Of a stretch of 30,890 nt of DNA, positions 18,777-29,535 are shown one piece after another; the stretch's first letter is position 1; each line of letters starts with the position of its first letter. The position numbers and the translations under genes were made by a program. Below the pieces are notes generated by a model. That model was not told the DNA's origin. It made no database searches and saw only the letters and a list, made by a program, of their open reading frames with translations. This stretch comes from an archaeon (GTDB lineage Archaea; Undinarchaeota; Undinarchaeia; Undinarchaeales; JBDRKL01): assembly GCA_043814055.1 (NCBI GenBank), contig JBDRKL010000003.1, forward strand, positions 1 through 30,890, read 5' to 3'.

Positions 18777-19868
18777 TCAAGAAACGTAATCTATGCAAAG
18801 CTCCTGGAGCATCTCAGGTTTTGCCTCGTCGGGCAGCATTATCCTCGGCTCAAACTTGCTGTTCTTCCCAACGATATTCGGGCTGTTCACTCCGGTGATG
18901 ATGGTCATTATGCGCATCTTGTCCCCGAGCGTTGGGTCAACCCGCGCACCCCAGATGACGTGCGCTGTTGGTGAGAGCTGGGATGAAATCATCTTGCTCG
19001 CCTTTGTCACTTCCGCAAGTGTCATACTGGGTCCGCCGCTCACGTGGATTATAGCACCGTTCCCACCGGTTGCGTCAACGTCAATGAGCGGGTGCTTGAG
19101 CGCGCAGTTCACACACTCCTCAGCATTTGTTCCTTCACCGACTCCAATCATTGCAACTCCGCCGCCGGTCATTATTGTCCTGATGTCCGCGTAGTCCAAA
19201 TTGACCAGGCTCGGCGTGGTTATGGTCTCTGAAATTCCCTTTATCATTCCAGCAATCAGATTGTCCGCATAGGCGAACGCGTCGTTCAGCGGGAGGTGAG
19301 GAACCAGCTCGACAAGCTTGTTGTTGTCAATGACTATGACTGTATCGCAGTTTTCGCGGAGCTCCATCAGCCCTTCCTCTGCCTTGTAGAGCCTGGCTTT
19401 TTCCATGTCAAATGGCGTTGTGACTGAGGCAACAACTATTGCTCCCTCGGATTTTGCAATCTCCGCGACAACAGGCAATGAGCCGGTTCCGGTTCCGCCG
19501 CCAAGCCCGCACGTGAGGAATACGAGGTGTGCGCCCCTGAGCTTCTGCCTGAGTTCGTTCCTGCTCTGCTGAGCTGCCTGCCGGCCAATTTCCGGGTAGC
19601 CGCCAGCGCCGAGCCCTTGTGTGAGCTGTTCACCTATGAGTATTTTTGAATCAGCCTTTGAGAAATTAAGATGCTGGGCATCAGTGTTAATAGAGATTGT
19701 TTTTGCCCCCTTCGCGCCTCCCATTCCCATTAGCCGTGTGACTGAATTATTGCCAGCTCCGCCTGCACCCACTACGAGTATCCTGGCCTCGCCGACCTGT
19801 ATCGGTTCTTTTATTTGCTCTTTCAATTCTTCTGCTCTGCTCAGGAGTTTCCTCACGTCAAAGTTCAT
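18777..19868 (-). CDS. ftsZ: Cell division protein FtsZ (FtsZ2-type)
   Basis: [23 protein letters not shown] signature, NLDYAD; PFxxExARxxKAEEGL and [12 protein letters not shown] resemble archaeal FtsZ2. ATG 19868 preferred to TTG 19889. Confidence 0.95.
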
Positions 19869-20082
19869 TTTTGCCCCCTTTGCGGACAAGTCAAAAAGCT
19901 TATATAGCCCTGAGACTTACCGCTGATTAATTGTTTTAAAATTGGATAGTAACCTGAATAGGGCTGTTCAACAAATCGAGTCAAACCAAACACAAAACCG
20001 ATGTCAGTTGCCGCTGACGATGAAAGTTTTGAATTTAGTTCTAATTGTGCTATAATCTGGGGTGATTTATATAGGTTTCTCA

Positions 20083-20559
20083 TTAAATTTCAAGTTCCAA
20101 ACTCTCTTTTATCGGCTCGTAAACTATGTTGCTCACCACTTTGTCAACCCCGGCAACTTCCCTTACCTGGTCCAAAATGAACTTTCCCATCTCGTCCAAA
20201 TTCTTCGCCTTTACTTTTATCAGCAGGTCCCACTCCCCTGCCATTATGTAAACTGCCTGAATCTGCGGGAACTTCGCGAGCTTCTTCGCAATCTCCCTCT
20301 GTGAAACAATCTTGTCCCCCCTCGGTCTATGCGAGTAAGAAATCTGCAGAAAGTTCGTGACTTCCCTGTCAAGCTTCTTCCCGTCCAGCACAGCGTGATA
20401 CCCTTTGATAATCCCAAGCTGCTCCATCCTGCGAATTTTCGCATACACAGTGCTCGTCAAGCTTCCAATCTCCTTTGCAACCTGCTTGGCGCTCTTCTTG
20501 CTGTTGTTCTGAATTATGCGCAGAATTTCAAGGTCGTTCCCGTCGAGCTTTACTTCCAT
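20083..20559 (-). CDS. Lrp/AsnC-family transcriptional regulator
   Basis: LDGNDLEILRIIQNNS...STVYAKIRRMEQLGIIKGY...MAGEWDLLIKV; divergent from the asparagine synthetase gene. Confidence 0.92.
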   Translation of the reverse strand: MEVKLDGNDLEILRIIQNNSKKSAKQVAKEIGSLTSTVYAKIRRMEQLGIIKGYHAVLDGKKLDREVTNFLQISYSHRPRGDKIVSQREIAKKLAKFPQIQAVYIMAGEWDLLIKVKAKNLDEMGKFILDQVREVAGVDKVVSNIVYEPIKESLELEI

Positions 20560-20670
20560 TTTTATAAAATTTATAAATTTAAGTATATAAATCTATGTAT
20601 TTTTGATATTTTTATAAAAAATATTGGGATAATCTTATTAAGCACTTCTCACACTAAACAAGAGATTAAA

Positions 20671-20767
20671 ATGAAAACAGAAACTGAAATACGGAATCTA
20701 TGACGCAGGCCTAGCGGGAACGCTGGGCGTCCCTAAAACCGGTGGTAAACCGGACCTGAGTTCTGTG
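20671..20767 (+). promoter_or_regulatory. Leader ORF MKTETEIRNL* and structured leader in front of the asparagine synthetase GTG
   Basis: TTATTAAG at 20635-20642, ATG 20671, TGA 20701-20703. Hairpins at 20702-20731 and 20739-20753; 20690-20697 can pair with 20760-20767. Confidence 0.55.
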
Positions 20768-21628
20768 CTGAAAATTCAGCACGAAATCATTGGAAGCGCG
20801 AGAGACTTTTTGGCAAAGGAAGGCTTTTTTGAAATTCTCCCGGTATTGCTCTCTGCTGAGACAGACCCCTTGTGCCACGAGGTAGTGGATGCAAAAATCC
20901 CCTACTGCGGCATGGAGTTTTTTCTAATGAAGAGCATGATACTCCACAAGCAAATCGCGCTCAAGCACCTTGACAAGATTTTCTGCTTCTCGCCAAACAT
21001 TCGGCTTGAGACTGAAGAAAAGCGGGACAGCGGAAGGCACCTGCTGGAGTTCACCCAGCTTGACCTTGAGGTAAAGGGCGCGAAACGCGACGAAATCCTT
21101 AGCCTTGGTGAGAAACTGTTTTCCTACGTGATGCTCAGCGTGCTCAAAAAGCACAGGGCTGACCTCAGCCGCCTGACAATGCCTTTAGTGCCCTTCAGGC
21201 GTATAACCTATGCGGATGCTGTGGAGAAATATGGTCTTGACTTCGAGTTAAAGCTTTCAACTGAGGCGAAAAGCCCGGTCTGGCTCATAGACATTCCAAT
21301 AGAAAAAAGGGAATTCTATGACCGTGAGGACCCAGCGCGGCCTGGCATTCTGCTGGACTACGACCTAATCTACCCAGAAGGATTCGGAGAAGCACTCTCG
21401 GGCGGGGAGCGGGAGTTTGAATATGGCAAAGTCGTTGAGCGGATAAAAAAGGCAGGCGGCTCGCCTGAAAAATTCGCCAAGTATCTTGAAGTAGTGAAGG
21501 AAGGCATACCTCCTTCAGCAGGATTTGGCATAGGCATAGAGCGCCTAACTCGCTACATCTGCGACCTGGAGCACGTCAAGGACGCGCGGCTCTTTGCGAA
21601 GGTGCCGGGAGGTGGCCTAACACTGTAG
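20765..21628 (+). CDS. asnA: Archaeal asparagine synthetase A (AsnRS-like paralogue lacking the anticodon-binding domain)
   Basis: TDPL, SMILHKQ, SPNIRLE, GRHLLEFTQLDLE, REFYDRE, GEALSGGERE, PSAGFGIGIERL; no N-terminal OB fold. True start uncertain. Confidence 0.85.
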   Translation: MLKIQHEIIGSARDFLAKEGFFEILPVLLSAETDPLCHEVVDAKIPYCGMEFFLMKSMILHKQIALKHLDKIFCFSPNIRLETEEKRDSGRHLLEFTQLDLEVKGAKRDEILSLGEKLFSYVMLSVLKKHRADLSRLTMPLVPFRRITYADAVEKYGLDFELKLSTEAKSPVWLIDIPIEKREFYDREDPARPGILLDYDLIYPEGFGEALSGGEREFEYGKVVERIKKAGGSPEKFAKYLEVVKEGIPPSAGFGIGIERLTRYICDLEHVKDARLFAKVPGGGLTL

Positions 21629-21635
21629 GTCGCAA

Positions 21636-21746
21636 TGTCCCTGTGGCTCTCCGCCAAACTGCGGAGGGGAGTTACGTCGTGCCATTCACGCTTCGCGTGA
21701 AAGGCACATAGTGGGTTCATCTGTGGTAATAGTGCCCCTGTGGCTC
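21636..21746 (+). repeat. Twin-hairpin element between direct repeats of the tRNA-Asn 5' end
   Basis: TGTCCCTGTGGCTC (21636-21649) vs TGCCCCTGTGGCTC (21733-21746); hairpins at 21647-21668 and 21679-21707. Confidence 0.6.
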
Positions 21747-21805
21747 AATGGCAGAGCACTCCGCTGTTAACGGAGAGACTGTTGGTTCAACTCCAGCCGG
21801 GGGCG
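21734..21805 (+). tRNA. tRNA-Asn(GTT)
   Basis: Cloverleaf: acceptor GCCCCTG/CGGGGGC, D-stem GCTC/GAGC, anticodon arm CTCCG-CTGTTAA-CGGAG, T-arm GTTGG-TTCAACT-CCAGC, G73. Confidence 0.95.
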
Positions 21806-21851
21806 CTCATCTTCGCAAAACTTTATATGCCAAAACGGAGTATGCATAACT

Positions 21852-23135
21852 ATGACTTTCATCTCAATCAAGGACGCGCAGAAGGACGGCAAGGACGTTG
21901 AAGTTCGCGGCTGGGTGCACAGGCACCGGGGCAGCAACAAGTTCGTCTTTTTCGTGCTCCGCGACTCGTCTGGAATTATGCAATGCGTCGTGCCCAGTGA
22001 AAACAAGTTCTTCAAGACCGCTGAAAAATTAACAATAGAATCCTCAGTTGAGCTTAAGGGCAAGGTCAAGAAAGACGACCGCGCTCCAGGAGGCTTCGAG
22101 CTCCACGTGAAAGACCTGAAACTCATCGGCGCATCAGACACTTTCCCAATCTCTAAGGACAAGGGAACTGAGCATTTGCTGGACAACCGCCACTTGTGGC
22201 TCAGAAGCCAATACATGACCGCGGTTCTAAAAATCCGCCACACAGTCATCGGGGCGATACACGAGTTCTTCCGCTCAAAAGGATACTACGAGTTTGACCC
22301 TCCAATACTCACGCCCTGCGCTTGCGAGGGCTCAATGACACTCTTTAAGGTCAACTACTTCGACGAGGTAATGTATCTCTCCCAGAGCTGGCAGCTCTAC
22401 GCAGAGGCAGGTATCTTTGCGCTTGAAAAAATCTACGACGTCGCGCCCACGTTCCGCTCAGAGCCTTCAAAGACTTCAATGCATATCGCGGAGTTCTGGA
22501 TGGCTGAGATGGAGGCTGCGTGGATGCATCTTGATGAAATAACTGAAGTTGCAAAAGAGGAAATCAAGTTCATAATCCAAAAAGTCCTGAAGGAAAACAA
22601 AGGCGAGTTAGAAATCCTTGAGCGCGACATCAAGCTCCTTGAGAAATACGCCAAGGAAAAATACCCGACAATAACTTACACCGAGGCTGTGGACATACTC
22701 AACACGAAGTGCGGGATGAAATTTGAATGGGGCAAGGACCTCCGCACCAAGGAAGAGGAAGCCCTTGGCAAACACTTCGGCGTTCCAGTCATAGTCACAA
22801 GATATCCAAAAGACATAATGGCGTTCTACAAGCCAGCTGACCCAAAAGACCCCAAGGTCGCTCTGTGCTTTGACATGATTGCACCAGAGGGCTACCGCGA
22901 AATAGTCGGCGGGTCAGAGCGATCAACAGACCAGGCGCAGATGAGGCAGGATCTAAAGAAGAAAGGCGCCGGCGCCGGGGACTATGAATGGTACTTTGAC
23001 CTTCGCAAGTACGGCAGCGTGCCGCACTCGGGCTATGGTGTTGGTGTTGAGCGTGTAATCGCGTGGATTTGCGGCTTGGACAACATCAAGGACGCGGTCA
23101 CGTTCCCGAGGGCGATGAACAGGATGAGGCCATAA
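21852..23135 (+). CDS. asnS: Asparagine--tRNA ligase
   Basis: OB fold (VRGWVHRHR...FFVLRDSSG), RHLWLRS, YLSQSWQLY, EFWMAEME (Asn-type, not Asp-type), EIVGGSER, PHSGYGVGVER. Confidence 0.93.
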   Translation: MTFISIKDAQKDGKDVEVRGWVHRHRGSNKFVFFVLRDSSGIMQCVVPSENKFFKTAEKLTIESSVELKGKVKKDDRAPGGFELHVKDLKLIGASDTFPISKDKGTEHLLDNRHLWLRSQYMTAVLKIRHTVIGAIHEFFRSKGYYEFDPPILTPCACEGSMTLFKVNYFDEVMYLSQSWQLYAEAGIFALEKIYDVAPTFRSEPSKTSMHIAEFWMAEMEAAWMHLDEITEVAKEEIKFIIQKVLKENKGELEILERDIKLLEKYAKEKYPTITYTEAVDILNTKCGMKFEWGKDLRTKEEEALGKHFGVPVIVTRYPKDIMAFYKPADPKDPKVALCFDMIAPEGYREIVGGSERSTDQAQMRQDLKKKGAGAGDYEWYFDLRKYGSVPHSGYGVGVERVIAWICGLDNIKDAVTFPRAMNRMRP

Positions 23136-29396: not shown

Positions 29397-29436
29397 ATCA
29401 ATCCTATGTGATTTGTACTTAATAAAAGTGTTGAAG

Positions 29437-29535
29437 TGGACCCGTCGAGATTTGAACTCGAGGCCTCAACCAGTCAGGACCTGCAAACTTGCAGATTTGC
29501 CAGGGTTGCGCTCTACCAAGCTGAGCTACGGGCCC
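29437..29535 (-). tRNA. tRNA-Ala(GGC) with 25-nt intron at 37/38 (intron 29473-29497)
   Basis: Acceptor GGGCCCG/CGGGTCC with G3-U70 and A73; anticodon arm CAACC-CTGGCA^T-GGTTG; relaxed bulge-helix-bulge at the junctions. Confidence 0.92.

Follow-up and report, generated by a model that had tools for sequence, protein, structure and literature searches.

In the RF2/antizyme architecture of +1 ribosomal frameshifting, a short open reading frame (ORF) in the zero frame is followed by the functional product in the +1 frame (excerpted text of PMC5009743). According to the same excerpt, the antizyme shift (UCC-UGA-U) takes place at the last sense codon before the UGA without a need for re-pairing, with 3′ structure close to the site, and acts as a polyamine sensor and effector in a metabolic feedback loop, while a +1 shift at CCC-UGA, the last codon of the Escherichia coli pheL leader peptide, is called apparently incidental (PMC5009743). 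For archaea, the excerpted part of a 2021 review gives the −1 frameshift of fucA1 in S. solfataricus (Saccharolobus) as the only experimentally supported cellular case; +1 shifting is only suspected, in the haloarchaeal virus HSTV-2, and a frameshift is suggested for Mg-chelatase with the direction not stated (PMC8211752). The present analysis concerns the start of an archaeal-type asparagine synthetase gene (asnA-like) lying within 30,890 nt of DNA from an archaeon of the order Undinarchaeales (contig JBDRKL010000003.1, forward strand); the whole of this stretch is termed the window.

The beginning of the gene is split between two reading frames. A short ATG-started ORF (ORF1) lies one base behind the frame of the enzyme (the main frame), and a +1 shift is required for entry. 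The same split is present in all four orthologues found in the order, comprising the window (L001) and the loci L002, L003 and L004, of which L002 and L003 belong to one family. The reading that we favour, and to which we give an even chance, is that this is a conserved programmed +1 ribosomal frameshift at the start of the asparagine synthetase. If true, it would provide a clean new case of archaeal +1 recoding that is conserved, of old phylogenetic origin and located at the very beginning of a biosynthetic gene with a housekeeping role. A frameshifted asparagine synthetase is not mentioned in the literature searched on Undinarchaeota and on frameshifting; the main text of PMC7414124, on Undinarchaeota, makes no mention of asparagine, frameshift or intron, its supplements lying outside the search.

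The arrangement resembles that of the bacterial RF2 gene (prfB, CUU-UGA-C) in that a short zero-frame ORF ends in UGA and the product lies in the +1 frame. The CUU-UGA of prfB recurs unchanged in L004, while the CUA-UGA-C of the window shares its weak UGA-C context. The short ORF comprises 7–11 codons here but 25 codons in prfB, no upstream Shine–Dalgarno-like stimulator was identified, and L002 lacks the stop. Moreover the host is an archaeon with a single aRF1 and the product is not a termination factor, so that the RF2 feedback logic is inapplicable. The window shares with antizyme a 3′ structure near the site, a hairpin lying 5 nt after its UGA. Unlike the eukaryotic, polyamine-dependent system, the ligand here would be Asn or Asn-tRNA, and no conserved pseudoknot was found. 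In +1 shifting of the Ty3 or hungry-codon type, a slow codon in the A site is combined with an out-of-frame incoming tRNA; in like manner a zero-frame AAU or AAC immediately precedes the main-frame entry point here, and in L004 it forms part of CCC-AAU, with a Pro codon prone to +1 slippage. The pheL shift for its part lies at the end of a leader peptide of an amino-acid operon. In the literature searched, no enzyme of amino-acid biosynthesis was found to be naturally controlled by hungry-codon shifting.

Four further systems may be compared with the locus. As in fucA1, which is expressed as one polypeptide, an archaeal cellular gene is split into two ORFs; however, fucA1 shifts by −1 on an A-AAA-AAT heptamer, is split in the middle of the gene and has no link to the product of the enzyme. 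In E. coli an Lrp/AsnC-family regulator (asnC) is divergent from the gene of the ammonia-dependent asparagine synthetase (asnA). The pairing of a divergent Lrp/AsnC regulator with an asparagine synthetase gene recurs here, but the enzyme is of the archaeal type paralogous to asparaginyl-tRNA synthetase (AsnRS) and not a bacterial AsnA, and we know of no frameshift in E. coli asnA. As in trpL or ermC attenuation, the short ORF has codons of the regulated amino acid at its end in 4/4 loci, whereas no mutually exclusive structures are supported and the main ORF has no conserved start codon. Finally, unlike T4 gene 60 bypassing, matched take-off and landing codons are not conserved.

Layout and conservation of the split start

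The elements of the locus are collected in Table 1. ORF1 terminates with TGA at 20701–20703 and its sole Asn codon is AAT at 20695–20697. The main frame is open back to 20675, preceded by a TGA at 20672–20674. Its last six codons, starting from 20750 (CCG GAC CTG AGT TCT GTG), encode the beginning of helix 1, preceded by its conserved Pro/acidic cap. The coordinates claimed in the initial annotation of the locus were all correct, including the translation MKTETEIRNL-TGA from ATG 20671 and the frame open to 20675. The position of the TATA-like element suggests an archaeal TATA box with transcription starting near ATG 20671, and because it ends 28 nt before this ATG, with conserved spacing, the mRNA is probably leaderless or nearly so, beginning at the ATG itself.

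Table 1. Coordinates of features at the asparagine synthetase locus (positions of the window)
Feature	Position	Strand	Description
Lrp/AsnC-family transcription regulator	20083–20559	−	Pfam PF01037 (2e-16), PF13412, PF13404; divergent from the asnA-like gene
TATA-like element CTTATTAAG	20634–20642	+	ends 28 nt before ATG 20671; putative
Short ORF (ORF1)	20671–20703	+	ATG, nine sense codons (KTETEIRNL), TGA; translated MKTETEIRNL
Main-frame open stretch upstream of GTG 20765	20675–20764	+	without ATG, GTG or TTG; encodes N-terminal extension
Candidate +1 shift window	20692–20704	+	CGG AAU CUA UGA C; bounded by ORF1 stop
GC-rich 8-bp hairpin, GGAA loop	20709–20728	+	5 nt after UGA; in minimum free energy structure
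Second hairpin, 5 bp	20739–20753	+	from folding
Perfect 7-bp hairpin GUGCUGA/UCAGCAC	20765–20782	+	covers GTG and LKIQ codons
Asparagine synthetase A body, archaeal-type	20765–21628	+	PF00152 (1.6e-50); 287 aa from GTG 20765
tRNA-Asn(GUU)	21734–21806	+	normal 7-nt anticodon loop
AsnRS	21852–23135	+	PF00152 and PF01336; NF003037 489.5 bits (cutoff 414)

With a homologue cut-off of E ≤ 1e-50 in the genome scans, the gene is present in 4/13 genomes of the order and 5/17 of the phylum; the relatives carry the title Candidatus Undinarchaeota, a DPANN phylum (L112). All four orthologues of the order have the ATG-started short ORF one base behind the main frame, at protein identities of 44–66%. The short ORF of L003 reads MKAETCTRNNN-TAA and that of L004 MTTTPNL-TGA, while that of L002 begins MESETDTRNN and runs 13 codons further, to SN-TGA (AAC-UGA-G); the title of the L002 contig gives ~2.9× coverage. 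In the place of the shift window L004 has CCC AAU CUU UGA A, L003 has CGG AAC AAU AAC UAA G, and L002 has CGG AAC AAC AGC GAA G, without a stop there. The number of Asn codons in the short ORF is 1, 2 (with one more at its end), 3 and 1 for L001 to L004, and in 4/4 loci Asn codons lie within its last two sense codons (these are related lineages, and no p-value is attached). The single Asn codon near the end of ORF1 that the initial annotation had pointed out is thus one of a set, an upstream ORF with one or more Asn codons being conserved in each orthologue.

The order of genes (Lrp/AsnC, asnA-like, tRNA-Asn where present, AsnRS) is common to all four loci. The upstream region is conserved in the four-locus alignment, with the TATA-like element ending ~28–31 nt before the short-ORF ATG. 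All four also have an invariant TTTTGA(A) ~60–70 nt upstream of that ATG (20601–20612 in the window), at which a regulator might bind or which might belong to the divergent promoter. When L002 and L003 are compared, the 76-nt interval between the ATG and LKIQ shows differences at 0.27–0.28 of positions, against 0.61 at four-fold sites of the body, and by this measure the interval is constrained.

Outside the order the gene is ordinary. L005 (same phylum, different order), L006 and L007 (other archaea) and all of the outside loci have continuous ORFs. The outside set comprised 160 loci from metagenome and species-genome scans (80 each), of which 158 yielded a start; two of its members, L111 and L112, duplicate the contigs of L002 and L003, and 157 of the loci with a start are non-Undinarchaeota. 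These metagenome and genome-contig scans (80 loci each) gave no additional Undinarchaeota locus. An assembly error was rejected, as the same frame offset occurs in four separate assemblies of differing sequence. Contigs from the one DNA sequencing run found (share 0.05) cover only 20419–20616, at the regulator gene, and do not bear on the split. The comparative context raises the observation above a single-genome oddity.

The main frame upstream of LKIQ

Positions are numbered from the conserved Leu of the LKIQ sequence at the start of the body (codon 0), with GTG 20765 at −1. In a MAFFT alignment the main-frame peptide upstream of LKIQ is colinear with the 25–30-residue N-terminal extension of many family members, to which it is homologous. 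Its BLOSUM score at positions −16 to −1, taken against 10 outgroup representatives, exceeds that of nucleotide shuffles with p = 0.033, 0.013, 0.008 and 0.007 for L001 to L004 respectively; the two other frames give far lower scores and mostly contain stops. Pro(−6) is invariant in the four loci and is encoded by three different codons (CCG/CCT/CCT/CCA). Position −2 is Ser or Ala, with Ser as TCT in one species and AGT in another. The −1 codon, at the GTG site, is GTG/ATG/GTT/ATT (Val/Met/Val/Ile), and therefore varies in the manner of a hydrophobic position rather than of a start codon; codon 0 is CTG/CTC/TTG/CTA. The alignment to the NCBIfam model NF005054 starts at residue 25 of the main-frame read-through (20747), 7 residues upstream of the GTG. 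In an AlphaFold2 model based upon a 44-row alignment (mean predicted local distance difference test, pLDDT, 88.8) helix 1 starts at −4, directly after the Pro-Asp sequence. On these grounds the main frame upstream of LKIQ looks protein-coding and homologous to the N-terminal extension of the family.

In the database relatives P0003 and P0008 this extension is present within ordinary ATG-started ORFs. The N-terminus of P0008 and P0123 is colinear with the read-through of L003, with Met at the position of an ATA in L003 and Trp at that of its TGA. It looks as if a split start was converted to a plain ORF in the P0008 lineage, or derived from one, by two substitutions.

The number of residues preceding the conserved Leu was counted from the first ATG, or else GTG or TTG, in the open frame. 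Fewer than seven are found in 0/157 outside loci, the commonest class has 12 (67/158), and the solved Pyrococcus enzymes have 14. A start adjoining LKIQ would be without precedent in the family by this count. Between the upstream stop and the conserved extension no main-frame ATG, GTG or TTG is present in L001–L003. In L004 the sole canonical main-frame start upstream is a TTG at the conserved Leu(−9), with none at −1 or 0 (ATT and CTA). Gene calls in the database start at LKIQ, at KIQ or at an internal Met; for P0009 and P0010 the latter is at +10 and +14, within the conserved domain. Gene callers thus truncate the protein, whose N-terminus would be wrong in metabolic reconstructions of Undinarchaeota, where the gene might also be marked as damaged.

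The upstream sequence might instead be a decaying remnant, an ancestral one-base frameshift mutation having cut off the N-terminus, with the lineages now using internal starts and what lies upstream being irrelevant. Within the clade N-termini are indeed labile, with starts at −17 in P0003, at −23 in P0005 (whose sequence there differs) and at −29, wholly in the main frame, in P0008, and an open +1 path is expected by chance, being found in 51–87% of shuffles. Against this, the leader of L002 and L003 has diverged far less than neutral four-fold sites, and the ATG, Pro(−6) and the spacing of the promoter have been kept between lineages whose protein bodies are only 44–46% identical. In addition, when counted by eye the extensions of L002 and L003 each match that of P0008 at 10/16 positions, and P0003 matches P0008 at 7/16. 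We consider decay improbable.

Initiation at a near-cognate codon of the main frame, with the short ORF incidental, is also improbable. The candidates are AUC 20696 and CUG 20681 or 20756 in the window, and AUA and AUC at −17 in L003 and L004 respectively. In favour of this, the ATA of L003 and the ATC of L004 correspond exactly to an ATG at −17 in P0003, and the database call for the window itself (P0001) starts at CTG 20756. However, L002 has ACA at −17 and no near-cognate codon at the conserved place. The mRNA appears leaderless from the spacing of the TATA-like element and the ATG, leaderless initiation generally needs a 5′-terminal AUG, and the ATG of the short ORF is conserved in 4/4 loci.

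RNA structure and the site of the proposed shift

We infer that the change of frame is made by the ribosome, at a position and under a regulation that would be as follows. Initiation would occur at ATG 20671, and ribosomes would translate ORF1. A fraction would move by +1 within its last codons, in the candidate shift window CGG-AAU-CUA-UGA-C, by skipping A20695, C20698 or U20701, and would then translate, in the main frame, the extension (20702, or an earlier position, up to 20764) and after it the catalytic body. The remaining ribosomes would terminate at the ORF1 stop. The initial annotation had raised a +1 shift near AAU-CUA-UGA-C as one of three possibilities, and it is this one that the comparison favours, the split start being present in 4/4 loci with a homologous extension and no canonical start.

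Two sub-models may be distinguished. A shift at the stop codon, as in RF2 or antizyme, fits three loci, while a shift at a slowly decoded Asn codon, of the hungry-codon or Ty3 type, fits all four. If the latter were true, expression would respond to asparagine. The short ORF might then be an asparagine-sensing frameshift attenuator, with the synthetase made only when asparagine is short, although we think it unlikely that the system extends so far. When Asn-tRNA(Asn) is scarce the ribosome would pause when its A site holds AAU or AAC, which is codon 9 in the window and part of an Asn tandem in L002 and L003, and slip by +1 into the frame of the enzyme; when Asn is ample it would read on and terminate two codons later. 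Such control would be layered upon transcriptional control by the divergent Lrp/AsnC regulator. The presence of Asn codons at the site in the gene of an Asn-synthesizing enzyme offers a testable hypothesis of amino-acid sensing by frameshifting, and an attenuator of this kind would exert amino-acid feedback directly through the choice of reading frame, in an archaeon.

In the window a 120-nt stretch of the leader is, as a whole, unusually stable (z = −4.19, with 0/200 shuffles as stable), whereas the leaders of the orthologues are not (z = −0.47, −1.49 and −0.91). The GC-rich hairpin that follows the UGA could act as a roadblock or stimulator; it sits in an 18-nt stretch that has no counterpart in L002 or L003. 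GTG 20765 lies inside a hairpin formed with a probability of ~1, and the unpaired probability of 20765–20770 is 0.00. Burial of the GTG in a stable hairpin fits with ribosomes that arrive from upstream. Small hairpins over the codons equivalent to GTG/LKIQ are also seen in the minimum free energy structures of L003 and L004. An Rfam search of the leader stretch gave two matches, with E-values of 4.3 and 4.9 and scores well short of the gathering thresholds.

The initial annotation had described a translational switch, with a long-range helix between UACGGAAU (20690–20697) and GUUCUGUG (20760–20767), a second pairing of CAGG (20706–20709) with CCUG (20755–20758), and two hairpins between them, such that a ribosome stalled at AAU would unmask the start as in ermC. 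All four sequences are present at these positions, as are both intervening hairpins, of 8 and 5 bp. The pairing itself was not borne out. Ensemble pair probabilities for the long-range helix are 0.0000–0.0012, and forcing both helices gives −30.4 compared with −40.9 kcal/mol, a cost of 10.5 kcal/mol. The covarying stems looked for in the relatives were absent from the RNAalifold consensus of the four leaders. With negligible pairing, no conserved structure and a −1 codon that is not a start, ermC-style unmasking finds no support.

In generalized form the same idea would be a regulatory leader ORF with independent initiation at GTG 20765 (ATG in L002, TTG in L003 and the TTG at −9 in L004), governed by the short ORF with its Asn codons and by the 5′ region under constraint. 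In its favour, 3/4 loci offer a canonical start at −1 or 0, which gene callers chose, and the short ORF has Asn codons at its end in 4/4. The constraint on the leader relaxes little at third positions, which would be expected of an RNA element, and the hairpin sequesters the GTG, so that some unmasking would be needed. Nevertheless, beyond the failure of the proposed switch, the −1 codon includes GTT and ATT, which are not starts, and the protein would lose the Pro/acidic cap and the start of helix 1. It would have 0–1 residues before LKIQ, compared with at least 7 in 157/157 outside homologues, and the resemblance of the main-frame leader peptide to the N-terminal extension of the family would be left aside. 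Independent initiation is an unlikely alternative to frameshifting, if less so than a near-cognate start or decay.

Removal of ~58 nt (20701–20758) had also been put forward in the initial annotation; it could take the form of a bulge-helix-bulge (BHB) intron or of a gene-60-like hop from CUA to CUG. Its arithmetic is right. The resulting N-terminus would have 13 residues before LKIQ, matching the commonest class of 12; the window has a stop after CUA, a hairpin after the stop and a matching Leu codon CUG before AGU; and the genome splices many tRNA introns. However, the conserved Pro(−6), acidic(−5) and helix start would be deleted. In the archaeal BHB a 4-bp helix is flanked by two bulges of 3 nt. 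Junction pairs that restore the frame were checked by hand and, for all such pairs in the four loci, by script, and no BHB motif was found to link ORF1, upstream of its stop, with the main frame. Codons matched for take-off and landing (CUA/CUG) occur in the window only, with no in-frame landing match in L002, L003 or L004, and the stretch neither recurs in the genome nor matches an Rfam family. An excision or hop of this kind is highly improbable.

Other sources of the offset were considered and rejected. Both tRNA-Asn have 7-nt anticodon loops and none of 40 tRNAs called by ARAGORN has an 8-nt loop, which excludes a quadruplet-decoding tRNA of this kind among the calls. Transcriptional slippage was set aside since a homopolymer run common to the sites is absent, and a mobile or repeat insert because 20690–20770 is unique in the 0.98-Mb assembly. 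A rare-codon explanation was dropped: in a crude set of 476 long ORFs CGG makes up 11% of Arg codons, CUA 8% of Leu codons and CCC 10% of Pro codons, frequencies that are low but not extreme. A tRNA-Arg(CCG/UCG) was not detected by ARAGORN, from which nothing follows as the assembly is 82% complete. Rejected ALTERNATIVES were an intron (no BHB), bypassing, quadruplet decoding, assembly error, a mobile insert and a known RNA family.

A number of observations weigh against a programmed frameshift. No known slippery motif is common to the loci, which have CUU-UGA in L004, CUA-UGA-C in the window, AAC-UAA-G in L003 and no stop in L002. RNAalifold on the four orthologous leaders gives no consensus structure (−0.03 kcal/mol), and no conserved stimulatory fold was found. 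Canonical starts are present at −1/0 in three of the loci, as noted above, and the open +1 path, being so common in shuffles, was dropped as evidence. Main-frame identity between L003 and L004 is weak (4/15, permutation p = 0.09), and the differences between the extensions of L002 and L003 fall 6/2/5 by codon position, which is not classically coding. Upstream of −6 the extension of the window is Gly/Ala/Pro-rich and predicted to be disordered (pLDDT < 50, residues 1–22). The short-ORF peptides have weak similarity to outgroup N-termini (p = 0.016–0.21).

The sampling and the tree weigh on the same side. Only four DNA sequences are available, which are kin to one another, L002 and L003 being of one family. 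FastTree, run on the 146 distinct of 165 sequences, groups L004 with the unsplit DPANN sequences L005–L007 (support 0.998) and not with L001–L003 (0.999); branches are long and the backbone is weak (0.80–0.83), and this tree does not resolve the monophyly of the four split genes. The placement of L004 could reflect long-branch attraction, or the split start could have arisen or been repaired more than once. Given a weak and conflicting tree, a single origin of the split start therefore rests on synteny.

Gene content of the locus

The source genome is ~0.98 Mb in 14 contigs with 46.7% G+C. The 287-aa ORF corresponds to the catalytic core of a class IIb aminoacyl-tRNA synthetase. It has no match to PF01336, the N-terminal anticodon-binding OB domain, which is matched by the adjoining AsnRS. 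The closest solved structures are the Pyrococcus 'archaeal asparagine synthetase A' entries 1nnh (1.4e-59) and 3p8t (2.9e-57) in the Protein Data Bank, with alignments that begin only at chain residues 15 and 16 respectively. The equivalog model NF005054 scores 389.1 bits, above its curated cutoff of 309, with profile positions 18–313 of 318 aligned to residues 25–312 of the main-frame read-through. As judged by these matches the gene product is an archaeal-type asparagine synthetase A, an AsnRS paralogue without the anticodon-binding domain, which would be expected to form Asn from Asp, ATP and ammonia.

The gene forms part of an 'asparagine cluster' (20083–23135) comprising the divergent Lrp/AsnC regulator, the asnA-like gene, tRNA-Asn and AsnRS, which is kept in L002 and L003. 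L004 has the same cluster genes, but a tRNA between the asnA-like gene and AsnRS was not detected there. The divergent regulator is found at L003 and L004 also, and tRNA-Asn lies 3′ of the asnA-like gene in L002 and L003 as in the window.

On the far side of the regulator is a 370-aa ORF (18777–19889, − strand) that is FtsZ/tubulin-like, as judged by eye from a sequence containing GGGTGTG, which we take to be a sign of this family. The ~1-Mb genome has two distinct tRNA-Asn(GUU) genes that differ in their acceptor and anticodon stems, one being that at 21734–21806 of the window and the other (C12:34923–35047) having a 50-nt intron. Introns are present in 17/40 ARAGORN tRNA calls, some of them long (Trp 193 nt, Met 109 nt and Gly 106 nt), and a tRNA-Ala(GGC) in the window (29436–29535, − strand) has one of 25 nt. 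In its intron mode ARAGORN also calls a tRNA with a CUA anticodon and a 95-nt intron at C12:115016–115203, labelled tRNA-Pyl; the call might be spurious, or the tRNA might read amber codons.

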